From IMG/VR virus record IMGVR_UViG_2541047892_000001: 35,657 nucleotides of DNA. One strand, given 5' to 3'. The DNA comes from a virus (taxonomy: Duplodnaviria; Heunggongvirae; Uroviricota; Caudoviricetes). Under the pieces are notes generated by a model, which saw only the letters and a program-made list of their open reading frames with translations, was not told where the DNA came from and searched no databases. Shown here one piece after another: positions 2,585 through 32,039 of this stretch (position 1 is the stretch's first letter; every line of letters starts with the position of its first letter). The position numbers were made by a program, and so were the translations under genes.

Positions 2585-3680
2585 CGGACACCCCTGTCAC
2601 GTTAAGAGTGATTGCCGTACAGTTTGCCCATTCGTTTTCTGCAACCACCCGCAGTGCCGGTGTCACCAGTTCAACCTGGTACACCCCGGAAACGGACAAT
2701 GCACTGATAATCTGGCTGGGGACAATATCGCGTCCCAGCGTGGCGGCACGTGATGCCACCCAGTTCTGTATGGCGCTGTTAGCGTTGTCCTTTACCGACA
2801 TTGCATCCTGATCACGATAGATCGTAATCCTGGCTTCAATGGTGTAATCCACCTGAACAGGTGTTTTAGCCCGCACGGTATCAGTGAGTGGTCTGACTTT
2901 TTCGTCAGAACAGAAACTCTCTACCAGAGTGAGGATACTGCTGTCTGGCAGACCAGTGCTGAGCAGTGGATACAGCTCGACAGTACCGGGAACGGGAGAA
3001 AGAACAGCGACGTCGACAATACTGGGATGCGCCCCCATGGCATGAAAACGGTATGCACCACGGCTTCCGGCATTGGTGAATGACTCCGGGGCCAGCCTGA
3101 TACGCTCCCGGAGTCGGTCATTGTCTTCCTGCTCTGAACCGCCAGTGCTGGCCGTCAGATTGGTCACCAGCAGGTCAACGTTATCAATCTCATCAAGCAG
3201 CTGACTGACCTGAGCCGGTTGCCAGCCGTTGCCAGAGGTACCCGGCTCAGTACAGGTGGCAGGGGCATTGACCAGTTGCAAACCGGCCTTCAGCACTACA
3301 TCTGTATCGGTGGCAAAAATCACGCTGTCGGAAGCGCTGACGCGGGTGCCTGCCGGGATCAGCACATCAATGGCCAGTGCCTCATCCACAGAGAACTGAA
3401 GTGTGGTGGTGGCAGGCTGCGCGGGAAGGCGGTATACACCAACCAGTTCTCCGAGGTAATCAATCATCGGCTCCCGGGAAAAGGCGACCAGATTCAGCTT
3501 CGCCGCCTCCTGTACCGCCACCCTGACCAGCATTTCGCGATAGGCCCACAGATCTATCAGCAGACGTTCTGCCTGTGCCGGGTACAACGTTTTGCCGGTA
3601 TCCGCTTCATATTTCGCAATCATTTCTGCCGTGATTTTATCGGCATCGAGTTCAATAAAATCGGGTTCTGTCAGCGCCAT
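2577..3680 (-). CDS. Baseplate J-like protein (P2 gpJ / Mu gp47)
   Basis: 367 aa; family-typical length and position downstream of the gpW-like protein. Confidence 0.85.
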   Translation of the reverse strand: MALTEPDFIELDADKITAEMIAKYEADTGKTLYPAQAERLLIDLWAYREMLVRVAVQEAAKLNLVAFSREPMIDYLGELVGVYRLPAQPATTTLQFSVDEALAIDVLIPAGTRVSASDSVIFATDTDVVLKAGLQLVNAPATCTEPGTSGNGWQPAQVSQLLDEIDNVDLLVTNLTASTGGSEQEDNDRLRERIRLAPESFTNAGSRGAYRFHAMGAHPSIVDVAVLSPVPGTVELYPLLSTGLPDSSILTLVESFCSDEKVRPLTDTVRAKTPVQVDYTIEARITIYRDQDAMSVKDNANSAIQNWVASRAATLGRDIVPSQIISALSVSGVYQVELVTPALRVVAENEWANCTAITLNVTGVSDG

Positions 3681-4018
3681 AGCAGTTCCTGAGTACGGGG
3701 TTGTCCGTCTGAGCCTTTCCAGCTCACCCGGAGCGTAAGATGTTCGCCGTCGACGGCGGGTTTAACCGACATAAGCTGGCAGCGGGGTTCCCAGCGCCTG
3801 ATGGCATCGACGGATTCGCGAACCACATGCGGAATGGCCCGGTCGACAGGCCAGTCGATATAAAGGTGCAGATTGCTGCCGAACTCTGGGCGATGCGGGT
3901 CGCTGCCGCGGGGAGTCCGCAGGATGATCTGGATGGACTGCTGGATATCATCCAGCCCCCGGACGATTTCGCCGGGAGCCTGCAGAGCCGGTTGCCAGAA
4001 TACTGAGGTCGTTTTCAT
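3671..4018 (-). CDS. Baseplate protein, gpW / gp25 lysozyme-like (Mu gp46)
   Basis: 115 aa; LDDIQQSIQIILRTPRGSDPHRPEFGS matches the GPW/gp25 family motif. Confidence 0.85.
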   Translation of the reverse strand: MKTTSVFWQPALQAPGEIVRGLDDIQQSIQIILRTPRGSDPHRPEFGSNLHLYIDWPVDRAIPHVVRESVDAIRRWEPRCQLMSVKPAVDGEHLTLRVSWKGSDGQPRTQELLWR

Positions 4019-4089
4019 GGGGGCAGTATTGCCCCAGTAAGAAAAGAACGATATTAAAGGGATTTAAAAAGGAGTTATTGATACGTTTG

Positions 4090-4965
4090 TTAAATTACGA
4101 AAACCTTGACGATAAGTTCTCCGTCTTTAGAGACTCTCTTCCCCTCAAGATCAGATTTCAGCCCCTCAGAATTAGTAATAAGCTGGTTCGGATCGTAGAT
4201 GACACACCAGAGATTTTTGCAATCAGAGTGCCGACGATAATGCTCTATATCGATAATAAGTTCATCGCCGATTTTCTTTGCATGAGAACGATCACGAACA
4301 ATTTTGGTTTCCAGTACTAATTTATGCGCAGGTAACAAAAAATCCATTCGAGTACTTGAACCAGCGTAACTTGGAGTAAACTCTTCTGGGCGGATGTCCT
4401 GAACCCATGGTCTGAGCAATGCATGGAGAAGGTCTTGCACGTCATATTCATTGCTAAAAGATAATGACTGGCTTCCTTTTCGCCTATGAGTAAGTGGATG
4501 CATTGCTCGCTGTAAGCCTTTGACCAGCCTTTCCAGTAAGTTCTCAACTTTTTCTGGCATTACTGGCTGTTGATAAGTAATTATGGTCTCTGGGTAATCC
4601 ATATTGTGTGACGGGATGTGGCCTTCAGGCAACACTCGACCAAAACGATAATATCTAAGTCCATTCTCTTGTAACACAGCTTCAATTCTGTCTCGTTTTT
4701 CCTTCCATTCTGCATATTCGGGAGTACCTTCTTTTGGAGGTAAATCCATAAACTCCTCAATTACTCCGCCCAGAACTGCCAGACTATCTGTATCTGGATC
4801 TTGCCCTGCAAGAAATAACCAGTCTTTCCATTTTGTACTATGAGATCCTGCCGGAGGGTTTCCTGGTGCTCCCGAAGTAAGAAATAACGTATCTAAAGCT
4901 GCATGAGAGCCTGAGTTAGCAATGACATCGCCAACTACTTTACATAAGGATCTTGATAACCGCAT
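4090..4965 (-). CDS. Accessory (moron) protein with predicted C-terminal PD-(D/E)xK nuclease fold; candidate defence gene
   Basis: 291 aa ORF in an AT-rich island between two conserved baseplate genes; C-terminal NEYDVQDLL...RMDFLLPAHKLVLETKIV fits the E...D...ExK pattern; GGGGA ribosome-binding site 5-9 nt upstream of ATG. Confidence 0.6.
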   Translation of the reverse strand: MRLSRSLCKVVGDVIANSGSHAALDTLFLTSGAPGNPPAGSHSTKWKDWLFLAGQDPDTDSLAVLGGVIEEFMDLPPKEGTPEYAEWKEKRDRIEAVLQENGLRYYRFGRVLPEGHIPSHNMDYPETIITYQQPVMPEKVENLLERLVKGLQRAMHPLTHRRKGSQSLSFSNEYDVQDLLHALLRPWVQDIRPEEFTPSYAGSSTRMDFLLPAHKLVLETKIVRDRSHAKKIGDELIIDIEHYRRHSDCKNLWCVIYDPNQLITNSEGLKSDLEGKRVSKDGELIVKVFVI

Positions 4966-5559: not shown

Positions 5560-6710
5560 TTTTTCTTCTCCTTAATCACCGTCGATGTACTGCCATCCGG
5601 GTGATAAACCGTGAGTTTCTGAGTTTTTTGTTTTTTCCCTCTTGTGACTGGCCCCCGTGCCACTTCCAGCTCTGTGGTGTAGCCGCTGTTACGCTCAAAC
5701 GCATGGCGGGCAGTGATTATCAGCCATGGACCGGATAATTGTCCAAAGCCCACCAGTTCAATTTTGTTGCCTGCTGTCAGTTGAGGCGTTCCCGTCAGCG
5801 TCAGGGAGCCGTTCTGCTGGTATTCGTTATGTCTGGCCAGTGCTGAATCCGCTTTAATCCGGGCACTGTCCGGGTCGCTGACGCGGCTGTTAACTTTAAG
5901 TGAGTCAGCGCTGGTAACCTTACCGCCTTTGAGCTTTTTGTCGCTTTCACGGGTACCACCATCAGCTTCGTAGACGATCAGTTTTTTACTGCTGCTTTTC
6001 TGGTGTTTTACCTTTGCAGATTTATAGACCCGGTTGATGGTGTCACGCAGGGAAAAGTGGGCCACATCCTGCGGTTTTAACTGCCTGACCGGCTCCTGAC
6101 TGCGCAATGTGGCCAGATGAGAAAAAATCAACTGGTCACTGACCACTTTCACTGCATAACCATACTCGCTGGCCAGCCGGCGCAGAAAACCCACGTCGGT
6201 TTCAGCATACTGGGTCACCCGGTCGATTCTGATGGACTCAATGCTGCCCACCAGTTTCAGCCGGTGCTTTCTGGCAATCCGACCCGCAACAGCTGCCAGC
6301 GTGGTGTTCTCAAAACCACGGCTGGATTTAGTCCGCAGAGCACTGTTAACCGAGGTGGCCACCCCACGGATAGCGACAACGGACGCGGGCGAACTCACTT
6401 CGATCTCGTCTATTGAGAATGTACCGTAGGACAGCAGTTTCTCGCCCTGATAACCCATTTTCAGCGTCAGCGTGTCACCCTTGCCCGGATACCACTTATC
6501 CAGCCAGCGGCCATCGGTGTCGTCCAGCTCCACCTCAATGGTATCGGACTCATTTTTGATGTTATCGCTCCAGACCACACGGGTGACATAAGGCGCGATA
6601 TCAGAGGTGATGTTTTTCTGCAAATACCACAGAGTGAATACCGGCGTCAGCACATCGCTGACGCCGGTTAACGCTGATGTGGCTTGCGCAGTACTGTTTA
6701 TCTCAGCCAT
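5556..6710 (-). CDS. Tail/baseplate hub protein, gpD-like (Mu gp44)
   Basis: 384 aa; late control gene D family features; stop/start overlap with neighbours. Confidence 0.75.
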   Translation of the reverse strand: MAEINSTAQATSALTGVSDVLTPVFTLWYLQKNITSDIAPYVTRVVWSDNIKNESDTIEVELDDTDGRWLDKWYPGKGDTLTLKMGYQGEKLLSYGTFSIDEIEVSSPASVVAIRGVATSVNSALRTKSSRGFENTTLAAVAGRIARKHRLKLVGSIESIRIDRVTQYAETDVGFLRRLASEYGYAVKVVSDQLIFSHLATLRSQEPVRQLKPQDVAHFSLRDTINRVYKSAKVKHQKSSSKKLIVYEADGGTRESDKKLKGGKVTSADSLKVNSRVSDPDSARIKADSALARHNEYQQNGSLTLTGTPQLTAGNKIELVGFGQLSGPWLIITARHAFERNSGYTTELEVARGPVTRGKKQKTQKLTVYHPDGSTSTVIKEKKK

Positions 6711-6910
6711 GGGGCAATATCCTCTTCTGTACGGGCATCTTCAGCCTCAATAACCGGGATCAGTAACAACAACCCGGAGGGCAGCACTGGCGTAATGGCC
6801 ACGTGCGGATTGGCTGCAATAATCCGGGGATAGCCCAGCGGGTCACCGTAGTACTGCCATGCCAGCGAATCCCAGCGCTCTCCGTCACGGGTAATATGTT
6901 CAAGAAACAT
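6698..6910 (-). CDS. Tail protein X-like (LysM-like)
   Basis: About 70 aa; ...RDGERWDSLAWQYYGD...IAANP resembles gpX; ATG at 6910 overlaps the upstream stop (ORF track start at 6913 is GTG). Confidence 0.65.
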   Translation of the reverse strand: MFLEHITRDGERWDSLAWQYYGDPLGYPRIIAANPHVAITPVLPSGLLLLIPVIEAEDARTEEDIAPWLR

Positions 6911-7794
6911 CACACACTCCTCGTCAGTATTCTGGCGACCATTGCACTTAATCCCGGAGACATGCGGTTGAATGCTGTGCCGGCGGCGTTAAGCTGCCCG
7001 GAAACGGTATCCAGAGCACCTGCAATATTTCTTTTGTCCACACCACTCAGCGCCGACTGCGCCTGCTGTACATACGTGGCTGCCTCACTGGCTGTTCTGG
7101 CCAGACTGATGGCATCGGGCATGGATTCAGAGAGTACATTAAACGCCGGAATACTTTTCCCCAGAGCGCCGGATATATTACCCAGTCCGCTCATCAGTCC
7201 CGGCACACGGGTCAGCGCGACAACGGGGTTACCCTTCATTTTCTGCGCCACCCGAACGGCACTGATGGTGGTCTGGAGTACAGACTGCGCCTGTTTCGCA
7301 TAGTTGACGCCGTTACGGACGAACTGCGCCACCCCGCAAGGCGATGGAACAGCACCAGATATGGCCCCGGCACCGGGAACCTGCCTGCGTATTGCCGGCG
7401 GTTGCAGAGGATTTTTCGGGTCACCGGTGTATTCCCGGAGAGACACGGTGGCACTGACAGCCAGCACGTTACCGGTGCTGTCTGTCTGCTCGCTGGTTGC
7501 GGTCACATCGGTAATCACGAACCAGCCGCGATAGTCACCGTTGCCGAAGACCAGCGCCAGTGCCTGATGGGCCTTCATGGCTGTTCGCACTCTCGCCAGC
7601 TCCACGTCGGGCACACAATAATGCTGATGGAAGACCAGGCTTATCTGGATTTCGTCCAGCCTGTCGCCGACGAACTGCAGGCCGGGTTTACCCTCGATGC
7701 GGGCATGCTCCGCATAATCGACGCCAAACGTGGCCTCGAAGCCGTCCCAGTAGGTAATCAGTTCAAACTCAATATCACCCAGTACGGCAAACAT
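6910..7794 (-). CDS. Tail protein, gpU / DNA-circularisation N-domain family (Mu gp43-like)
   Basis: 294 aa; N-terminal MFAVLGDIEFELITYWDG; directly downstream of the tape measure with ATGA overlap. Confidence 0.6.
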   Translation of the reverse strand: MFAVLGDIEFELITYWDGFEATFGVDYAEHARIEGKPGLQFVGDRLDEIQISLVFHQHYCVPDVELARVRTAMKAHQALALVFGNGDYRGWFVITDVTATSEQTDSTGNVLAVSATVSLREYTGDPKNPLQPPAIRRQVPGAGAISGAVPSPCGVAQFVRNGVNYAKQAQSVLQTTISAVRVAQKMKGNPVVALTRVPGLMSGLGNISGALGKSIPAFNVLSESMPDAISLARTASEAATYVQQAQSALSGVDKRNIAGALDTVSGQLNAAGTAFNRMSPGLSAMVARILTRSV

Positions 7795-10259: not shown

Positions 10260-10351
10260 GGTGGCTATCCTCTGAAAGCAAAAAAACGGAAGGGAAGTGT
10301 CTGAACCCCATGCAGAACAGCCGCGACTGGCGGCTGTTAAGTGATACGTTG

Positions 10352-23075: not shown

Positions 23076-23793
23076 AACTGCTGCCTCCCCATGTGAGATA
23101 TCGCGGTGCCAGTTCGCGCAGGATGCGCTGCGGATAATGGCGGTTCTCCCGCCAGCTGGCCGCATTGCGTCCGGCATTCACCGTGGCGACATGTCCGAAC
23201 CAGCGGGTGCTGTCCAGACCTTTCTGTGATGCAAGCCGCCTGTCCCGTTGTACCCAGCCCAGACCACCGTTATAGCCTGACAGTGTCATGGCCATACGCT
23301 CGCAGTCGTTGGCGGCGCTGACGCGCTGCCACAGCCAGCGGTCATAGCTGACCAGCGCCCGGATGGCCCATGCCGGATTAAACGGCTCACGGCTGTTAAG
23401 TCCCGGCATCAGCTGACTTATCCAGTCGGCAGTGGCAGGCATGAACTGCGCCAGTCCCTGAGCACCAGCCGGCGAGACCGCATCAGGTCGCCAGCCGCTT
23501 TCCTGATGCAGTTGCGCGGCGAAATCTGCCACCGGCGCAGACAGTCCCCATTCAAGCCGGGCATTACGGATCACATCATCGCGATACTGCAGCGCAGCCT
23601 GCGGAGGCTGCGCTGCGCGGGCCTGACTGAAGAAGCCACCACACCAGAGCAGCCAGACAATCACCAGGTTGCCAGCAAGCTGCCACCAGAAGCTGTATTT
23701 ATCGTTACGTGGTTCGCCGTGTCTGATGGCGGTTACGCCCAGACCAAAGGCGAACAGAATAATGAGGGTGATTTGAGGCCAGTTCATGGTCAC
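23059..23793 (-). CDS. Endolysin, lytic transglycosylase (SLT domain) with hydrophobic N-terminal segments
   Basis: 244 aa; SLT catalytic region QLHQESGWRPDAVSPAGAQGLAQFMPATADW; two hydrophobic stretches in the first 60 aa; start overlaps the holin stop (ATGA). Confidence 0.82.
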   Translation of the reverse strand: MTMNWPQITLIILFAFGLGVTAIRHGEPRNDKYSFWWQLAGNLVIVWLLWCGGFFSQARAAQPPQAALQYRDDVIRNARLEWGLSAPVADFAAQLHQESGWRPDAVSPAGAQGLAQFMPATADWISQLMPGLNSREPFNPAWAIRALVSYDRWLWQRVSAANDCERMAMTLSGYNGGLGWVQRDRRLASQKGLDSTRWFGHVATVNAGRNAASWRENRHYPQRILRELAPRYLTWGGSSCVASG

Positions 23794-24270: not shown

Positions 24271-24594
24271 ATGACTGAACCGAAACAGTCTGGTATTAAA
24301 AAAGGGTTCCTCTTTGGGAGCAGAATCGGAGAGCAGAATAAAACTTACACGCTAAGCTTGGATGCATGTTGTCCAACCGAAGCGATTATAGAGCTGAAAA
24401 ACGTTCTGGTTGCACTTGAAGAGAGAAGAAGTCATTTCGCCAGCGGAGAAAACAACGTCATGCTAATTGGCGATGTGGCGGCGACATCACGATATAAAAC
24501 CGCACCTAATCCTGCGATTCAGTTATCCTTCGACCAACGAATACTGGAAGCGGAATCAGCAGTTCCCAGAACGGTTCGTCCTCACCAGTCTTAA
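24271..24594 (+). CDS. Hypothetical small protein (107 aa), divergent from the lysis operon
   Basis: ATG at 24271 preceded by GGGGAGG with 8-nt spacing; 3' end overlaps the convergent 191-aa gene by 89 nt, so one of the two may be miscalled. Confidence 0.3.
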   Translation: MTEPKQSGIKKGFLFGSRIGEQNKTYTLSLDACCPTEAIIELKNVLVALEERRSHFASGENNVMLIGDVAATSRYKTAPNPAIQLSFDQRILEAESAVPRTVRPHQS

Positions 24595-25081
24595 CTGGGG
24601 CTGCTTCACCCGACCAGTAAAGCCAAGCACGGTGATACAGTTCCAGCACCGGGCAATCACTGTTCAATAACCTCATATCTCCGCGATGCACCTGCTCATT
24701 TGTGATGACTTCATATATCGGTGCCGTTCTTATTTCGTCTTCGCCTCTCTCATCAGCCAGTAATTCCCTGAACTTCCTGACTTCACTCAGATGCTGACAG
24801 GCAAACAGTGACTGATAGCGGGAAGGTTTATCAGGAAAATGGCTACGGCGAACTAACTCAAACACCAGACCGACCAGCAGACTTCTGCTGATTCCACTGT
24901 CATCTTCCATTTTAGGGCCGGGGTTATAGAGATAGTTATACCCGTGACTCGAAAGGCCATTGGGATACATCTGATGAAGAAAAGCGGCCAGTTCTGGCAT
25001 TTCAGGCTCGTATTTTCCGGTAATTACATGACAAGGCGAAGGCAGACGACTAGCGGAATCAAGTGTGTAATACGTTCCCAT
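24506..25081 (-). CDS. Hypothetical accessory protein (191 aa), no recognisable family
   Basis: ORF in the accessory region between lysis genes and repressor; separated from the upstream cassette by a 409-nt non-coding gap. Confidence 0.5.
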   Translation of the reverse strand: MGTYYTLDSASRLPSPCHVITGKYEPEMPELAAFLHQMYPNGLSSHGYNYLYNPGPKMEDDSGISRSLLVGLVFELVRRSHFPDKPSRYQSLFACQHLSEVRKFRELLADERGEDEIRTAPIYEVITNEQVHRGDMRLLNSDCPVLELYHRAWLYWSGEAAPVKTGEDEPFWELLIPLPVFVGRRITESQD

Positions 25082-25228: not shown

Positions 25229-25490
25229 ATCGCCCCACAGGAATGCACTGTGAGCCGACCGAGGTTCAGTCAGTCTCGCGAGACCAGACTAGCCTGCCAT
25301 ATTTTTTATAATTATAAAAGGGTTACAGATTATGAAAATGCAGACATTCCCCATCGCTCCATGGATTGGTTGTAAACGCCGCCATGCCAGACATATTCTG
25401 GCCGATGTTTCCTAGCACGCACGAATATGAGGCAACTGACGAGAATAAATGATGCGTCAGAATGAACCGTCGACACCGTGATTTCAGGTT

Positions 25491-26102
25491 TCAAAAATCT
25501 GGAGAAGGTATATCTATCTGACCGACGTTTCGTAACCACATCTCTTGCTTTGTTTCTTTATTGGTTCGGGCGATATCATTAGCATTGTATCTGCATGTTT
25601 TAACCGCAACCTCACGAACTCGTGCTATAGGAGTATTTGTGTAGAATTTAAGATCTTCCTCTACCGCTCGTATGGCGATAAGCCCTCCACTCTGAAAACC
25701 GCTGGTTACTTTTAAAAGATCAACTCCTTGGTTATAAACGGCATTACATACGTTAGGGAACTCATCTTCTACAGTTTTGGGGATCATCAGCATATCAGGA
25801 AGACCCTGTAACACGTTATCTTCCTTTGGCCTCCATGCCCTTCCCAAAAAAGCTGTTATAGGTTGTGGTGTAGAAAGAAATGCCAATTCTATATAAAACA
25901 AACCACTGTAGTGATCGCGTAACGAATAGACTAGTAAATGATCTTTTCCAGTTTTACTTGCATTGCTAAGTTTTATATCAAATGGTTTTTTCTGGTACTT
26001 AAGCAATCCATCAACTCCCGCATAATAATGCTTTGAAACAGCAACAGAAAGTTGATGTACTTGGTTCGGATAATCTGTTCTATATCGTTTAATTAGCCCC
26101 AT
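25491..26102 (-). CDS. Hypothetical accessory protein (203 aa), third gene of the repressor-linked cassette
   Basis: AT-rich (about 36-40% GC by eye); GAGG ribosome-binding site 6 nt upstream of ATG; 20 nt downstream of the 328-aa gene. Confidence 0.6.
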   Translation of the reverse strand: MGLIKRYRTDYPNQVHQLSVAVSKHYYAGVDGLLKYQKKPFDIKLSNASKTGKDHLLVYSLRDHYSGLFYIELAFLSTPQPITAFLGRAWRPKEDNVLQGLPDMLMIPKTVEDEFPNVCNAVYNQGVDLLKVTSGFQSGGLIAIRAVEEDLKFYTNTPIARVREVAVKTCRYNANDIARTNKETKQEMWLRNVGQIDIPSPDF

Positions 26103-26122: not shown

Positions 26123-27109
26123 CTATTTCAAAATATAACGATATTTACTATCTGGAGTGTTTTGTTGGTCAAGTAATAGAGCTCTACATGGGGCGGTCAA
26201 AACACGGGCATAACGACCATCGGGGTTTATGTTGATGTAACAAGTTTTCCCTTTAACACCATAAGATTCAGGTATTATTGCCTGTGTAGACACCGTGAAT
26301 TTAAGGGTATGCCAGCCCGATTTTTGCTTGTAGCTTGAAACCGAATGGAAATCATCTGAGTACTTATTTAACCCTGGAAACATGCTGCGTAATGCTGGGA
26401 TGGAATCTTCTATTATTTTGTCGTTGGTTTTAATGTTAAAAACGCTGGTTTCAGTAGATGCTACTGCTTTAGCATTTCCCCATTTACCAGCGAACACAAT
26501 CATTCCCACGAAAAATATTGCGACAAGAACTAACGCTCCCCCCAACACTACTACATGAGGCTTCCGGCTTCTGGTTGGTACAGTCGCGACTGATTTTGCC
26601 CCGCTGTCCGATGGAGGTGATAGAGTTTTACTCTCATCACGAATATTCAGCAGATCATCAAAATAACCAAACACAGCCTGCAACTGCTCTTTGTCCAGGC
26701 CTTTAAGATGGGTTGTACCGAAATGCTTCAGACAGTATCTGTCACGGTCAAGACGATACCTAGGGTCAGTAAGCACCATTATTTTGCTGACCAGAAGATT
26801 ACAGTCCTTCATATTCTGGATCTGTTGTGCATATCTCTGGAGGATCTCAACCGCACCATGATAATCAGCCGCAGTCATTTCATTAACTGTTTTGGTATTA
26901 AGTTTCGTGTGGATCGTCATCCATAGTTCGCGCTTACTTTCCCCCAGATCAACCAATTCATCCATCAATCTGTGTAAATCGCGTTTTTGCAGCAACGAAA
27001 TTGGTTGCTGGGCAGAGGGAAGTATGTCAGCAGAATAGTTATGAATGGTAACATCACCGCTGACAACGTTACCCACATCTCCGTTAACTGTTTGCTTCTC
27101 TTTACTCAT
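26123..27109 (-). CDS. Hypothetical bitopic membrane protein (328 aa): N-terminal Gly-rich motif, about 190-aa cytoplasmic domain, one TM, about 110-aa C-terminal domain
   Basis: TM helix HVVVLGGALVLVAIFFVGMIVFAG; start codon overlaps the repressor stop (ATGA); AT-rich. Confidence 0.65.
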   Translation of the reverse strand: MSKEKQTVNGDVGNVVSGDVTIHNYSADILPSAQQPISLLQKRDLHRLMDELVDLGESKRELWMTIHTKLNTKTVNEMTAADYHGAVEILQRYAQQIQNMKDCNLLVSKIMVLTDPRYRLDRDRYCLKHFGTTHLKGLDKEQLQAVFGYFDDLLNIRDESKTLSPPSDSGAKSVATVPTRSRKPHVVVLGGALVLVAIFFVGMIVFAGKWGNAKAVASTETSVFNIKTNDKIIEDSIPALRSMFPGLNKYSDDFHSVSSYKQKSGWHTLKFTVSTQAIIPESYGVKGKTCYININPDGRYARVLTAPCRALLLDQQNTPDSKYRYILK

Positions 27110-27567
27110 TTTCTCTTTGTATTTTTGTTCATTATTCCACCTGTTCCTATGGTTACGTTACCTTTGATAACATTCCCCAGAACATCTCCATGAATAACCT
27201 GTTCCGCCCGTTCTCTGGAGGAGCCAGTCGTCAATGCCGACAAAACTGAACCTTTGACTTGTAACGGTGCTTGCCGGTAGTGCTGAAGTAACTCCATTTC
27301 ATCACGTGATAAAGTTATACCTGATGATTCCCCAGTAAGAATGAACTGTACGTTGGCCCCAATTCTTGCAAAGGCTGCAAGTAACTCACCTCCGGGAACT
27401 GCAACCCCTCGTTCATATTTCCCCCACATTTCTCTTGAAACGCCACAAAGGGCTGCTACTTCAGCCTGCTTGAGTGATAACCGCGAACGCTCAGCTTTGA
27501 ACCGCGACGCGCAAAGAGAATCAAAATTCACATAAACCTCATTGACAATGAGAACAATGGTTCTCAT
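27106..27567 (-). CDS. XRE-family HTH transcriptional repressor (putative prophage repressor)
   Basis: HTH_XRE signature LKQAEVAALCGVSREMWGKYERG; divergent from the early operon; alternative GTG start at 27531 with a GAGG site would leave the operator and early promoter outside the coding region. Confidence 0.8.
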   Translation of the reverse strand: MRTIVLIVNEVYVNFDSLCASRFKAERSRLSLKQAEVAALCGVSREMWGKYERGVAVPGGELLAAFARIGANVQFILTGESSGITLSRDEMELLQHYRQAPLQVKGSVLSALTTGSSRERAEQVIHGDVLGNVIKGNVTIGTGGIMNKNTKRK

Positions 27568-27570
27568 AAT
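27542..27570 (+). promoter_or_regulatory. Early promoter: -35 TTGACA, 17-bp spacer, -10 CATAAT, with an operator-like inverted repeat in the spacer
   Basis: TTGACA at 27542..27547 and CATAAT at 27565..27570; spacer contains ATGAGAAC-aatg-GTTCTCAT (27548..27567); 48 nt upstream of the first early gene. Confidence 0.55.
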
Positions 27571-27617: not shown

Positions 27618-27806
27618 ATGACTTCCGAACAAGTTAAAACTCTCTTCCGTCAGCGTGGTATCACGTTTACCCGCTGGGCCGAAGAACACGGCTACAGCCG
27701 CAATGAGGTCTATCGTGTTCTCAATGGACAGACCAAAGCTCGTTACGGCAAAGCCCATGAAATTGCCGTAAAGCTGGGATTAAAACCCACGTCAAATGCG
27801 GCATAA
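27618..27806 (+). CDS. Small Ner/Cro-like HTH DNA-binding protein (first early gene)
   Basis: 62 aa; AAGGAG 6 nt upstream; layout resembles Ner/Nlp-type regulators (weak, from memory). Confidence 0.65.
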   Translation: MTSEQVKTLFRQRGITFTRWAEEHGYSRNEVYRVLNGQTKARYGKAHEIAVKLGLKPTSNAA

Positions 27807-27858: not shown

Positions 27859-28167
27859 ATGAGTAAAGTAAATATCTCCAGTTCCGGGACCCGCATCCTA
27901 CGTGTACTCAAAGCTCTACGCGGTCACTCTCTGAACGGTGTTTCTAACGGTGAACTGGCATCAGCCCTAGATGAGTCCCCGGCGAACATCAATCGAGCAC
28001 TCAATACCCTTATCGAAGAGGGACTAGCCCTGAAACTGGAAAACGGGCGTTTCGCACCAGGCATCCAGTTGCTGCAGATCGCCATGGCCCACAGTAACGA
28101 GATGGCACGTGCACAGGATCGCATTAACGAAATCAACCAACGTGTTATTTCAGGTAGTCGTTTGTAA
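27859..28167 (+). CDS. Winged-helix DNA-binding protein
   Basis: ILRVLKALRGH...GVSNGELASALDESPANINRALNTLIEEGL is HTH-like; start uncertain (ATG 27859, or 27796 overlapping the previous gene). Confidence 0.55.
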   Translation: MSKVNISSSGTRILRVLKALRGHSLNGVSNGELASALDESPANINRALNTLIEEGLALKLENGRFAPGIQLLQIAMAHSNEMARAQDRINEINQRVISGSRL

Positions 28168-28177
28168 GGAGTAATCA

Positions 28178-29089
28178 ATGGGACGCACCAAATCACCGGT
28201 TAGCACTGAACTGAACGTCGAGGTACCGCTGTCGGATGATCTCAATGTCAGTCTAAACGCCATGACACAGCATCGCATGGAAATCATGCAACAGTTCGGC
28301 GATGGTCTGCCCTATGAGCGCGATCGTGTTGTCCATGAGGCACGCTTTTATATGGCACAGAGCGCTGAGGCCATGCTGGAGGCAGGTAAGCGGCTGATAA
28401 TCCTTAAGGAAAATGAACCACACGGGGAGTTTATAAAGATTCTTGAAAGTGAGTTGGGGCTGGCATACCGGACATCTGTGAGAATGATGCAAGCATCGAC
28501 AAAATACTTATCCCCGGCGCTGAAACCAAATGTGCCAACGTTGGCACATTTGGGAAAAGCCAAACTTTTCGAATTAATGACAGAAGACGACGAAGAGCTT
28601 GCCGAACTGGCCGACGGCGGCACAGTTGCCGGCATGACGCTTGACGATGTTGATCGCATGTCAGTACGTGAATTGCGTCAGGCCCTGCGTGAAGCGCGCG
28701 AAACCAACGCAGCACAACAGCGTGTTCTCGCCGATAAAAATGAAAAAATAGACTCACTCTCCACCAGACTGGAGAAGAAATCCCGTATTCAGCCACCTGA
28801 GCCTGATGAAGAGGTGAAGAAACTGCGGGCGGAAGTGACCGCGTTAGCGGTTGAGGCGGAATCTGCCATCGCCGTTCGACTGTCCAGCGCTTTTGAGACA
28901 CTGTGCGCATATTGTGCTGAAAACATGATTGATACCCCCAGAGACTTCATGGCAGGCCTGGTCTGTCAACTGGAAAGCACAGCGCGTAGCCTGCGCTCCA
29001 CATTTGACCTGCCGGACGAGCCAACAGGCGATGTCGCGCCTTCATGGCTGACTGAGCCGACGCCACAGATTAACGGGCTGGAGGCATAA
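28178..29089 (+). CDS. Hypothetical early protein (303 aa) with central coiled coil
   Basis: AAGGAG 6 nt upstream of ATG; lies between the regulators and the transposase; no family recognised. Confidence 0.6.
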   Translation: MGRTKSPVSTELNVEVPLSDDLNVSLNAMTQHRMEIMQQFGDGLPYERDRVVHEARFYMAQSAEAMLEAGKRLIILKENEPHGEFIKILESELGLAYRTSVRMMQASTKYLSPALKPNVPTLAHLGKAKLFELMTEDDEELAELADGGTVAGMTLDDVDRMSVRELRQALREARETNAAQQRVLADKNEKIDSLSTRLEKKSRIQPPEPDEEVKKLRAEVTALAVEAESAIAVRLSSAFETLCAYCAENMIDTPRDFMAGLVCQLESTARSLRSTFDLPDEPTGDVAPSWLTEPTPQINGLEA

Positions 29090-29092
29090 CCA

Positions 29093-30862
29093 ATGAATGC
29101 TGCCCTGACTGAACGACTGGTTTATGTCGCCCGCGCGGCACGTGACGCGGGGCATGGTAAACGCGGTGCAATATACGACGCTGCCTGTGCTGAACTTGGC
29201 ATGTCCCGCGCCACTCTGCTGCGCAGGCTGAAGGAGGTATCTGTGACTGATAAACGCAAAAAACGCGCCGATGCCGGGCGCAGCGCCCTGACCCGCGACG
29301 AAGCCGCGCTGATATCTGCCACACTGCGTGAGGCCACCCGCAAGAACGGTAAGCGTCTCTATTCCATCGCAGATGCAGTGGAAACCCTGCGGGCTAACGG
29401 CTTTATCTCCGCAGGCAGAACAGATGAAACCACCGGTGAGTTTTTCCCGTTGTCCGAAGATGCCATCAGTCGTGCCTTGCGTAACTATGGCCTGCACCCG
29501 GAACAACTGGATGCCCCTGCGCCGCATACCGAAGTGGCCAGTCTGCATCCCAATCACGTCTGGCAGATTGATGCCTCGCTCTGCACGCTTTACTACCTGA
29601 GCAATGGACACAAAGGGCTGCAGGTGATGGACAGCGCGAAGTTCTACAAGAATAAACCCGCTAACCTTGCCCGTATCGCCAGTGACCGCGTGTGGAGTTA
29701 CGAGATTACCGACCATGCCAGCGGCTGGATTTACGTTGAGTATGTGACGGGTGCGGAATCCGGTGAGAACCTGTGTTCTGTGCTTATCAACGCCATGCAG
29801 GAGCGTGGCGGCGCAGACGTGCTGCACGGCGTGCCGAAAATACTCTATCTCGACCCCGGCTCGGCAAACACCGCGGGTATGACGAAAAACATGTGCCGCT
29901 CACTGGGCATCGACCTGATAGCGCACAAGCCGCATAACGCCCGCGCCACCGGACAGGTGGAAAAGGCGCGTGACATTATCGAACGCAAGCTGGAGCCGGG
30001 TCTGAAATTCCGGCCGGTTCACAGTCTGGAAGAACTCAACGCGCTGGCCGCGAAATGGCGTAGCCACTTTAACGCAACAGCTGTTCACAGCCGCCACGGT
30101 AAAACCCGCACGGATATCTGGCTGAAGATTACTGCTGAGCAGCTGAAAAAAGCGCCTTCCGTTGAGGTATGCCGTGAACTGGCTGTGGCGACACCAGAAC
30201 TCCGCAAAGTCACGCCAAAACTTCGTGTCTCGTTCCGGGGCACTGAATTTGACGTATCAACGGTACCGGGCGTACTGGTTGGTGAAAAACTGATGATTAC
30301 CCGTAACCCATGGCGCAGCGATGTGGCACAGGTGGTTCTGACCGGTGAGGACGGCCACGAGACGTTCTTCCTGGTCGAAGAGGTCAGAAAGAACGAGTTT
30401 GGCTTTGCTGAAGGCGCGGCGGTATTTGGCGAAAGTTACAAAGCCCTGCCGGAAACACCGGCACAGACGGCGGCAAAAGAAACCGAAGCGCTGGTCACCG
30501 GTACAGACAACGCCGCAGATGCAGCTGCCGCACGCAAGGCGAAGGCGCTGCCGTTCGGCGGGCGGCTTGACCCGTATAAACATATTGATGACGCCACACT
30601 TCCGGCCTGTATACCGAAGCGCGGTCAGGTCTCTGATGTACGCAGACCGCGCACTGAACAACGTCCCATGACTCATGTGGAGGCCGCGAAAGCCCTGCGC
30701 GATAAGTTCAGCGCCGACGGCCTTACCTGGACGCCGGAACATTACCGCCAGTTAACGGCACAGTACCCGGACGGCGTACCGGAAGCCGCACTGGATGAAG
30801 TAATGGCCACGCTGACCACGCCGGCCCGCAGCAGCGTTATCAGCATTGTTAACGGCAACTGA
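29093..30862 (+). CDS. DDE (rve/integrase-core type) transposase
   Basis: 589 aa; candidate catalytic residues in HVWQIDAS, LYLDPGSANT and a downstream Glu; GGAGG 8 nt upstream; followed by an AAA+ ATPase; no resemblance to the MuA N-terminus. Confidence 0.8.
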   Translation: MNAALTERLVYVARAARDAGHGKRGAIYDAACAELGMSRATLLRRLKEVSVTDKRKKRADAGRSALTRDEAALISATLREATRKNGKRLYSIADAVETLRANGFISAGRTDETTGEFFPLSEDAISRALRNYGLHPEQLDAPAPHTEVASLHPNHVWQIDASLCTLYYLSNGHKGLQVMDSAKFYKNKPANLARIASDRVWSYEITDHASGWIYVEYVTGAESGENLCSVLINAMQERGGADVLHGVPKILYLDPGSANTAGMTKNMCRSLGIDLIAHKPHNARATGQVEKARDIIERKLEPGLKFRPVHSLEELNALAAKWRSHFNATAVHSRHGKTRTDIWLKITAEQLKKAPSVEVCRELAVATPELRKVTPKLRVSFRGTEFDVSTVPGVLVGEKLMITRNPWRSDVAQVVLTGEDGHETFFLVEEVRKNEFGFAEGAAVFGESYKALPETPAQTAAKETEALVTGTDNAADAAAARKAKALPFGGRLDPYKHIDDATLPACIPKRGQVSDVRRPRTEQRPMTHVEAAKALRDKFSADGLTWTPEHYRQLTAQYPDGVPEAALDEVMATLTTPARSSVISIVNGN

Positions 30863-30872
30863 GGAGGGAAAC

Positions 30873-32039
30873 ATGCTGGTACTGAAGCAGCAACTGAAAG
30901 AGGCCCGTATTCCACAGGCGGTGGTGGCGAGAGCTGTCGATGTTTCTGAGGCCACGCTGGCCCAGATTGTGAATCATAACGCGTGGCCCCGCACCAGCCC
31001 CGGAGAAGTGCGCCGGCGTCTTGCGTCCTGGTTGGAAAGTCAGGGGATTGATACAGCGAAGAGTTTTGATGCTGTACAGGGCGCGGCCACTCCCCGTACA
31101 GCGGGTACCACAGATAAAACGAGCCTCAGTGAGGAAGAGAATATGTTACTCAAAAAACAGGTGTTATTCCCGGCAACCAAAAAAGCGTTTGGTCTTTTCC
31201 GTGACCCGTTCGCCGACGAAGCCATGCAGGGTTCTGATGATGTGTTCACCACCCCGGACATTCGCTACGTGCGTGAGGCGTTGTACCAGACAGCCCGTCA
31301 TGGTGGGTTTATGGCCGTCATCGGTGAGTCCGGTGCGGGTAAATCCACGCTGCGCCGCGACCTGACTGAACGTATCAACCGCGAGAATGCGCCGGTAATT
31401 GTTATCGAGCCATACATCATCGCTATGGAAGACAACGATGTGAAAGGGAAAACCCTGAAGGCAGCAGCTATTGCCGAAGCCATTATCAGTACCATCGCAC
31501 CACTGGAAAGCATCAGACGCAGTCAGGACGCCCGCTTTCGCCAGTTGCATCGCGTCCTGAAAGACAGCAGCCAGGCGGGGTTCAGCCACGTTCTGGTGAT
31601 TGAGGAGGCCCACAGTCTGCCCATTCCGACACTGAAACACCTCAAACGCTTTTTTGAGCTGGAGTCCGGTTTCAAAAAACTGCTGTCCATCGTGCTGATT
31701 GGCCAGCCGGAACTGGCGACAAAACTGTCTGAACGCAATATGGAAGTCCGTGAAGTCGTTCAGCGCTGTGAGGTGGTCGAACTTCTGCCTCTGGACAATA
31801 ACCTTGAAGAGTTTCTGACGTTCAAACTGCAACGGGCAGGTAAACAACTGACGGACATTATGGACGCCAGTGCAGTGGATGCCATACGTGCCCGCCTGAG
31901 CAATCCGGGAAGTCATCGTAAAAATATGGTCAGCCTGTTGTATCCGCTGGCCGTCAGTAACCTGGTGATAGCCGCCATGAATCTGGCCGCTGAAATCGGG
32001 GTTCCACAGGTCAACGCTGACGTTGTCAAAGGGGTTTAA
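30873..32039 (+). CDS. Transposition AAA+ ATPase (MuB / TniB / ExeA-like)
   Basis: Walker A VIGESGAGKST and Walker B VLVIEEAH; N-terminal HTH-like segment; GAGGAGGG ribosome-binding site; start 10 nt after the transposase stop. Confidence 0.85.
   Translation: MLVLKQQLKEARIPQAVVARAVDVSEATLAQIVNHNAWPRTSPGEVRRRLASWLESQGIDTAKSFDAVQGAATPRTAGTTDKTSLSEEENMLLKKQVLFPATKKAFGLFRDPFADEAMQGSDDVFTTPDIRYVREALYQTARHGGFMAVIGESGAGKSTLRRDLTERINRENAPVIVIEPYIIAMEDNDVKGKTLKAAAIAEAIISTIAPLESIRRSQDARFRQLHRVLKDSSQAGFSHVLVIEEAHSLPIPTLKHLKRFFELESGFKKLLSIVLIGQPELATKLSERNMEVREVVQRCEVVELLPLDNNLEEFLTFKLQRAGKQLTDIMDASAVDAIRARLSNPGSHRKNMVSLLYPLAVSNLVIAAMNLAAEIGVPQVNADVVKGV

Follow-up and report, generated by a model that had tools for sequence, protein, structure and literature searches.

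A perfect 28-bp palindrome is embedded in the coding sequence of a DUF3102-family gene that lies directly in front of the transposase gene of a transposable prophage, and across homologous genes its bases covary with residues of the DNA-recognition helix predicted for the encoded protein. The gene occupies positions 28178-29089 of a viral sequence of 35,657 nucleotides (Caudoviricetes; IMG/VR record IMGVR_UViG_2541047892_000001), the whole of which is termed the window. Judged from sequence comparisons and structure models, the protein most likely binds the palindrome within its own gene. The reading that we favour, at a confidence a little short of even, goes further: the DNA-bound protein would act as an internal organiser or enhancer of transpososome assembly, in line with the "transposition accessory factor" that an original prediction, made from the bare letters of the DNA, had named among its candidates. 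The gene itself is ordinary and already annotated; what is new is the inferred mechanism, which applies family-wide.

The DUF3102 gene and its embedded palindrome

The following features of the gene carry the argument.

28178-29089 (stop codon included), plus strand: DUF3102-family gene, 303 aa, with its ATG at 28178 and a TAA at 29087-29089
28166-28171, plus strand: ribosome-binding site AAGGAG with a 6-nt spacing to the ATG; it overlaps the stop codon of an upstream winged-helix (wHTH) gene
28298-28693, plus strand: N-terminal helical domain (aa 41-172) containing the DUF3102 core, with a ParB/KorB-like helix-turn-helix (HTH) predicted from the models
28466-28507, plus strand: predicted recognition helix (aa 97-110), from the secondary structure of the model and the covariation tables
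28526-28553: perfect palindrome of 28 bp without spacer (14+14 bp; CCAAATGTGCCAAC followed directly by GTTGGCACATTTGG), codons 117-125, the proposed binding site
28694-29062, plus strand: C-terminal half (aa 173-295), comprising most of a helical hairpin or coiled coil (aa 163-248) and a further helix (aa 255-275)

The open reading frame and its ribosome-binding site are as first described, and so is the location between early regulators (a ner-like gene and the wHTH gene) and the transposase gene. The statement that no family could be assigned does not hold. The protein scores 31.1 bits with Pfam PF11300 (DUF3102), above the gathering cut-off of 24.4 (E 3.2e-7), its residues 65-172 covering positions 24-128 of the 129 in the profile. 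PHROG 1748 is matched from end to end (E 1.2e-139; aa 1-301 to profile positions 1-300 of 302). The RefSeq entry WP_000533824.1 is named "DUF3102 domain-containing protein", and the PF11300 label is precomputed on nearly all close homologues; an NCBIfam search yielded no meaningful match. DUF3102 and PHROG 1748 are both families of unknown function, the former with 1661 clusters at 50% identity (E <= 1e-3). The matches lead to an uncharacterised family; clear homology to a known transposition or replication protein, which would have spoken against the original prediction, did not appear.

In the literature searched, neither a function, nor a fold assignment, nor an embedded palindrome is described for DUF3102; the papers on KS10, Fc02 and Pseudomonas aeruginosa Mu-like phages give the gene no function, and searches on the origin of Streptococcus thermophilus phage 7201 yielded nothing relevant to the gene. 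Proteins of such a prophage are seen in culture: in a proteomics study of ESBL-producing Escherichia coli, a DUF3102 protein (QGA32870; identity to the window protein unchecked), the adjoining HTH protein (QGA32871) and Gam (QGA32865) were detected (PMC9927464).

A long palindrome is found at the same codons in B3, BcepMu, PhiKM, phiSHP3, Spirochaetia genomes and most other loci. We scored the best 13+13 arms in 164 homologous genes, a set obtained after adding 80 viral contigs. The arms at these codons agree at 13/13 positions in 80 genes, at 12/13 in 38 and at 11/13 in 20; at least 12/13 is therefore reached in 118 of the 164. Random 135-nt windows of these loci give a median best score of 9/13 and a 99th percentile of 12. 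In several genes counted as palindrome-free, a decayed version (10-11/13) occupies the same place. Among the 74 distinct palindromes the inner sequence varies and the symmetry is kept. If the base at the dyad is numbered p1 and that at the outer end p13, the outer CAAA...TTTG and the central CG are near-constant, and p9-p7, p5, p4 and p2 vary. The peptide encoded by the palindrome is a variable loop (PNVPTLAHL, SKAQTFALL, PKRSALSVL and others), so that conservation is at the level of the DNA.

The arrangement extends to distant DUF3102 genes of Firmicutes, where a palindrome lies at the same distance after the HTH. Its carriers there include S. thermophilus phages 7201 and 20617, Bacillus phage 250, Lactobacillus brevis and Alicyclobacillus plasmids and a Streptococcus satellite. 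Three distant members lack it, namely those of Bise, an Enterobacter phage-plasmid and a Bacillus thuringiensis plasmid. Allowing up to two mismatches, no further copies beyond chance occur in the window or in the whole prophage.

Some homologues (P0163, P0248, P0253 and P0230) are 430-545 aa long and have N-terminal extensions of 150-250 aa. These contain repeated Cys-x2-Cys and Cys...His motifs, have no Pfam match and provide no fusion clue; they may represent zinc-binding repeats or mis-called starts.

Predicted fold of the protein

An AlphaFold2 model of the full-length protein, built from a 103-sequence alignment, is all-helical (pLDDT 87). A short tail containing one helix (aa 1-40) leads into the compact domain (aa 41-172), which is followed by further helices and a disordered C-terminal tail. 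Two helices of 40 residues each (aa 163-202 and 209-248) precede the helix at aa 255-275, a layout consistent with the earlier description as a coiled-coil protein. Modelled alone, the N-terminal domain reaches a pLDDT of 95 and a pTM of 0.81. Its predicted HTH consists of a helix (aa 82-92), a turn and the putative recognition helix (aa 97-110).

The fold matches of this domain are to ParB, KorB, SopB and VirB; scores are modest and identities only 10-18%, and seven members of the superfamily dominate the list. No match to the N-terminal CTPase (ParB/Srx) domain of ParB was found in Pfam at E <= 0.1. The full-length model has no Foldseek match in the PDB, and a Foldseek search of BFVD retrieves only other DUF3102 or unnamed proteins. 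Searches of the PDB by sequence found nothing, the best E-values (0.026 for the single protein, 0.72 for the 103-sequence profile) being coiled-coil noise.

A residue-to-base code

The gene is mosaic among close relatives, the N-terminal domains being 72-83% identical where the C-terminal half and the transposase are 93-97% and the flanking regions 90-97% identical; the homologue P0074 differs from the window protein only after about aa 237, where it is PhiKM-like. In close relatives, amino-acid differences concentrate in aa 94-102 and in the loop encoded by the palindrome. We tabulated helix residues against half-site bases in 50 distinct helix/half-site combinations. An arginine at position 102 coincides with C at p4 in 22/22 combinations, and any other residue with A at p4 in 27/28 (Fisher p 3e-13). 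Position 101 obeys a second rule, Arg going with CG at p8p7 (13/13) and Gln with C at p7 (26/26), and at position 99 Thr accompanies C at p5 (27/30) and Ile accompanies A (7/7). Chemically, an Arg facing a G:C base pair makes sense.

Each of the four possible pairings of states at aa 101 and aa 102 is present and obeys the rule, as in the helix/half-site pairs RTAQV/GCGCAA, RTAQR/GCGCCA, RTARL/CGGCAA and RVARR/CGGACA. Since the codons for aa 101 and aa 102 are adjacent, the paired bases are 3 bp apart and all combinations occur, the pattern cannot be produced by recombination of blocks. On a tree calculated from the remaining parts of the domain, 13 changes each are needed for aa102 and p4, and 14 for both together; for aa101 and p7 the numbers are 18 each and 18 together, nearly all changes coinciding. 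The same pairing, xQxxARR with CGCTCA, is common to E. coli phage PhiKM and metagenome-assembled genomes (MAGs) of Spirochaetia, the N-terminal domains of which are about 50% identical.

Across the set, distances between contact residues and distances between palindromes are correlated (Mantel r 0.61, p <= 0.0005), and remain so when the rest of the domain is controlled for (0.59). Two other candidate binders of the palindrome were rejected on the same measure, as neither the recognition region of the upstream wHTH protein (r 0.11) nor the N-terminal HTH of the transposase (r 0.12) gave a significant correlation; in close relatives the palindromes differ even where the wHTH and transposase segments are identical. 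Given the covariation of helix and bases and its absence from the wHTH protein and the transposase, the DUF3102 protein itself is the most likely ligand of the palindrome.

A core early gene of BcepMu/B3-type phages

The window represents a BcepMu/B3-type transposable prophage and not Mu. Over the 1.8 kb tested it matches with 100% identity a prophage between aqpZ and ybjD of E. coli GABEEC10, and among phage records it is closest to PhiKM (genus Bcepmuvirus), Klebsiella KP12 and Phi06_2974 B. The early region around the DUF3102 gene comprises the following features.

27106-27567, minus strand: divergent repressor gene
27542-27570, plus strand: promoter-like, near-consensus TTGACA-17-CATAAT between the divergent repressor gene and the ner-like gene
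27548-27567: operator-like palindrome ATGAGAAC-AATG-GTTCTCAT (8+8 with a 4-nt spacer), overlapped by the promoter-like site
27618-27806, plus strand: ner-like gene
27859-28167, plus strand: IclR-like wHTH gene (Pfam HTH_IclR, PHROG 1368) upstream of the DUF3102 gene
29093-30862, plus strand: transposase A of the rve (Tn552/BcepMu) type
30873-32039, plus strand: transposition ATPase B (AAA_22, ExeA-like)

The promoter-like site and the palindrome that it overlaps probably constitute an early promoter with its operator, at the start of the operon that contains the DUF3102 gene; the position of this site between the divergent repressor gene and the ner-like gene places the DUF3102 gene in the early rightward operon. 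The stop codon of the gene is separated by 3 nt from the ATG of the transposase gene, a GGAGG lies within the end of its reading frame, and in some relatives the two genes overlap. Translational coupling of the DUF3102 gene to A is probable.

The original prediction took Mu as its reference and described the gene as inserted. That Mu has no gene between ner and A is correct, A directly following ner there, and yet Mu is the wrong reference, since the phage belongs to the BcepMu/B3 group and its transposase is unlike MuA: BLASTP finds no similarity between the two (E 0.47), the generic rve domain is the sole Pfam domain of the window transposase, and none of the domains PF02316, PF09039, PF02914 and PF09299, all present in MuA, is found in it.

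Among the actual relatives, the order wHTH, DUF3102, A, B recurs in B3 (ORF14-13-12-11), phiSHP3, Bise and PhiKM, as well as in BcepMu (gp12-[gp11]-gp10-gp09-gp08) and likewise in phiE255. The homologues B3 ORF13, BcepMu gp10 and phiE255 gp41, all in the same position before the transposase, are 52%, 41% and 54% identical to the window protein. Furthermore, we fetched 80 loci from 80 bacterial species with conserved peptides of the N-terminal domain, taken from a six-sequence alignment. In almost all of them tblastn locates A and B downstream on the same strand, and in most the wHTH gene upstream, which by synteny is a constant neighbour of DUF3102 in the transposable-phage lineage. These loci span Enterobacterales to Spirochaetia, and the A proteins of the Spirochaetia MAGs are only 27-33% identical. 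This type of transposase is present in 69 phage records, and the protein or its C-terminal half in 67 records that come from the same host genera. In KS10, a homologue of BcepMu gp10 stands in front of a different, D3112-like transposase (PMC2628397). The region is present in 636 of 5426 complete E. coli genomes (about 12%), and in 626 of these 636 at least 80% of it is covered.

Synteny and near one-to-one co-occurrence with this transposase type indicate that the gene belongs to the early core set of BcepMu/B3-type transposable phages and is not an insertion. The comparison of related prophages that had been suggested as a check finds the gene in the same position across the relatives examined. 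Many E. coli relatives (e.g., PhiKM, 6814-7131) have an extra open reading frame of about 105 aa, without a family, between the DUF3102 and transposase genes; it is absent from the window.

Beyond the transposable phages, the family also occurs on phage-plasmids and in a Streptococcus satellite. Outside the transposable phages a second neighbour recurs: in S. thermophilus phage 20617 (fetched locus L175, 4992-6435) and on an Alicyclobacillus plasmid (L092, 4810-6092) an anti-repressor-like or ORF6C-domain gene comes directly after the DUF3102 gene.

A proposed role in transpososome assembly

In the mechanism that we propose, the DUF3102 protein would be a site-specific DNA-binding protein, which, probably as a symmetric dimer, recognises the 28-bp palindrome through the ParB/KorB-type HTH of its N-terminal domain. 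Protein and site would form one self-contained cassette that is inherited together. The C-terminal half may serve oligomerisation and is proposed to contact transposase A and ATPase B, such that the DNA-bound protein would organise or enhance transpososome assembly in BcepMu-type phages. It would thereby supply in trans the internal-site binding that Mu builds into the N-terminal domain of MuA.

Several lines of evidence point to a link with transposition. The gene is strictly adjacent to A and probably coupled to it, and it co-occurs with this transposase type, which lacks anything like the enhancer-binding domain of MuA. Moreover, the divergence of the C-terminal half tracks that of A and B. 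Its identity to the window protein correlates with theirs (Pearson 0.87-0.89), whereas that of the N-terminal domain remains within 52-83% (with a mean of 65% where A falls below 70%). Finally, the C-terminal half is kept in JBD25-type phages despite exchange of the N-terminal domain. JBD25 gp15 (L004, 4419-5396), likewise placed before the transposase, resembles the window protein in the C-terminal half alone (37% identity over aa 166-291). Its N-terminal domain is unrelated, with a weak HTH_28 match, and its gene contains a palindrome of its own, AAAAGTGGTCAC-G-GTGACCAGTTTT, at codons 86-94.

A number of points weigh against this proposal. Each prophage carries the site just once, and its ends have no copy nearby. 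The correlation of the C-terminal half with A and B may result from physical linkage alone. Recognition helix and palindrome are only about 50 bp apart, and part of their covariation could stem from joint inheritance; the combinatorial pattern at aa 101 and aa 102 argues against this without excluding it. The seed peptides bias the sample of loci towards one subfamily, although they lie outside the helix and the palindrome. DUF3102 genes directly follow cro in the non-transposing Firmicutes phages 7201 and 20617 and in Bacillus phage 250, and on plasmids they adjoin rep, DnaC-like or primase genes. The version in the virulent phage 7201 has 175 aa and consists of the N-terminal domain without the C-terminal half. 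The literature searched mentions DUF3102 only in passing and reports no experiment on a family member.

A wider claim, which includes the organiser role, is more tentative and rather doubtful as a whole. DUF3102 and its embedded palindrome may represent a widespread, hitherto undescribed class of self-contained cassettes in temperate phages, plasmids and satellites, with a readable recognition code (aa99-p5, aa101-p7/p8 and aa102-p4). In the transposable phages the cassette would be an essential internal enhancer or organiser that brings in the transposase, the B ATPase or both via the C-terminal half; a separate protein would thereby stand in for domain I-alpha of MuA and the internal activation sequence (IAS).

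Alternative explanations

The evidence can be read in other ways, among which we rank the organiser or enhancer first and autoregulation second, with centromere-like, CII-like and RNA-based readings well behind. Autoregulation is possible, if clearly less probable than the organiser role. The protein would bind its palindrome and block the elongating RNA polymerase or otherwise repress the early operon, exerting a KorB-like control of timing or dosage that shuts down its own gene together with A, B, gam and the genes up to mor, without taking part directly in transposition. What speaks for DNA binding serves this explanation equally well, and the site, some 960 bp downstream from the promoter-like sequence at 27542-27570, is inside the unit of early transcription. 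Phages with unrelated replication carry the gene in the same place after cro or ner, which favours a general role in early regulation; the short version of 7201 suggests that DNA binding alone may suffice, and KorB and VirB, among the fold matches, are transcription regulators. However, autoregulation leaves unexplained why the C-terminal half is retained in JBD25 when the N-terminal domain is exchanged, and why the gene occurs nearly one-to-one with one type of transposase. The phage already has a Ner-like early repressor (the product of the ner-like gene, of the BcepMu gp16 family, TIGR04111), and no promoter- or terminator-like element was found at the palindrome.

An improbable alternative is a centromere-like or anchoring function, in which a minimal ParB-parS or KfrA-type pair positions or tethers phage, plasmid or satellite DNA, or the two prophage ends, via the coiled coil. 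It would account for the ParB-family fold matches, for the single intragenic palindromic site (as with parS in spo0J), for an N-terminal DNA-binding domain joined to a long helical tail as in KfrA and for the presence of the family on plasmids and phage-plasmids near partition and replication genes. Yet the protein matches neither the CTPase domain of ParB nor KfrA_N in Pfam, and the neighbours of the gene in the window are the wHTH gene, the rve transposase and the AAA_22/ExeA-like ATPase, with no ParA-type ATPase adjacent or elsewhere in the window. Furthermore, an integrated transposable prophage needs no partition, and the gene is part of an early lytic operon.

Slightly less probable still is a CII-like activator of lysogeny that binds inside its own gene and switches on a leftward promoter reading through ner into the repressor gene. 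The geometry resembles that of lambda cro-cII-PRE, with the gene one to three positions after the divergent repressor/cro switch both in this prophage and in temperate phages of Firmicutes, and the protein has a disordered C-terminal tail. Against such an activator, 85 aligned flanks revealed no conserved -10-like element at a fixed distance from the dyad on either strand, only codon periodicity; and a repressor that could be activated is absent from the virulent phage 7201, the plasmids and the satellite that also carry the family.

It is very unlikely that the palindrome functions as an RNA hairpin of the early mRNA, in processing, stability or attenuation before A and B, with a protein of unrelated function. 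A 12-bp stem could form, and the minimum free energy calculated for the 81-nt stretch is -24.7 kcal/mol (z = -4.0). In the imperfect palindromes, however, the mismatches shun the centre (p1 1, p2 5, p13 18), so that the would-be loop is the most symmetric part and the mismatches lie chiefly at the outer end. Only 13/69 of them are G-U compatible on the mRNA strand, and no U-tract follows the stem. These features argue for a role of the DNA rather than the RNA, and a hairpin gives no reason for the base-by-residue covariation with a helix of the protein.

Least credible is a reading along the lines of the initial view, in which an accessory gene with, for instance, an anti-defence or anti-repressor function entered a Mu-like early region not long ago: the family has no known function and the mosaic N-terminal domains of close relatives could be read as an arms race, but from Enterobacterales to Spirochaetia every relative has the gene in this place, the region is intact in nearly all E. 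coli genomes carrying it, and variable residues paired with a variable palindrome signify a change of specificity and not antagonistic diversification. The anti-defence candidate finds no support in PADLOC (no match at E <= 0.1), the models of which represent defence and not anti-defence proteins, and in place of an anti-repressor the evidence points to a sequence-specific DNA-binding protein.

Other features of the window

Three minus-strand genes lie 3' of the repressor gene, between 24506 and 27109, and resemble accessory genes expressed in lysogens.

26123-27109, minus strand: 328-aa protein (PHROG 10002), the start of which overlaps the repressor stop codon; a related PHROG is annotated as membrane protein
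25491-26102, minus strand: 203-aa protein, no family in Pfam, PHROGs or PADLOC
24506-25081, minus strand: DUF2441 protein

The region of the structural genes contains terminator-like GC-rich inverted repeats at 6642-6666, 10316-10338 and 23591-23614 (9-10-bp arms, 4-5-nt loops), and a 16-bp palindrome made up of A and T only, TTTTATAATTATAAAA, is found at 25304. In the source genome, just beyond the left edge of the window (3601-4173 in the fetched locus L173), a recombinase-family gene and oppositely oriented tail-protein genes suggest an invertible tail-fibre segment.

Significance and comparison with known systems

Most of what is understood about the mechanism of transposable phages comes from Mu, and the module described here is present in about 12% of complete E. 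coli genomes. If the organiser reading is true, BcepMu/B3-type phages assemble or control their transpososome otherwise than Mu, and DUF3102, with more than 1600 clusters at 50% identity, would obtain its first molecular function together with a predicted binding site. A simple residue-to-base code might be reprogrammable, and the palindrome offers a precise handle for tests. From sequence and models, a domain of unknown function would thus become a testable protein-DNA pair beside a widespread transposition module.

B3 ORF13, BcepMu gp10, phiE255 gp41 and 7201 ORF2, all members of DUF3102/PHROG 1748, are homologous to the window protein, and the embedded palindrome is present in all examined; as none of them has a described function, the comparison yields no mechanism.

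The likeness to ParB, KorB, SopB and VirB consists in a tentative resemblance of the predicted fold of the DNA-binding domain and in a palindromic site within the gene. The DUF3102 protein is not a ParB, since both the CTP-binding domain and a ParA partner are missing; its C-terminal part is a helical hairpin and not the ParB dimerisation domain, and its context is a phage early operon. KfrA of IncP plasmids, at about 300 aa, likewise combines a DNA-binding domain at the N-terminus with a long alpha-helical coiled-coil tail, and it binds an inverted repeat at its own gene. In contrast to the DUF3102 site, the KfrA operator is located in the promoter and not in the coding sequence, and the window protein has no match to Pfam KfrA_N.

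DNA sites within genes for their own binding proteins have precedents, as the lambda O gene contains ori and spo0J contains a parS site. The likeness to lambda O and ori-lambda extends to the N-terminal position of the DNA-binding domain, to specificity types that are swapped among relatives, and to a gene that comes just after cro or ner at the head of a replication module, where the next gene would encode the contact partner of the C-terminal part. The two are nevertheless unrelated in sequence and fold; there is one palindrome here instead of four iterons and an AT-rich region, and replication proceeds by transposition, so that no origin is expected.

The Mu enhancer (IAS) and the N-terminal domain of MuA offer a functional analogy only, which lies in an internal, non-terminal site in the early region to which a protein of the transposition machinery would bind. 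In Mu the enhancer-binding domain (PF02316) resides within the transposase and the site overlaps the operators, whereas in the BcepMu/B3-type phages a putative separate protein would bind a site embedded in its own gene.

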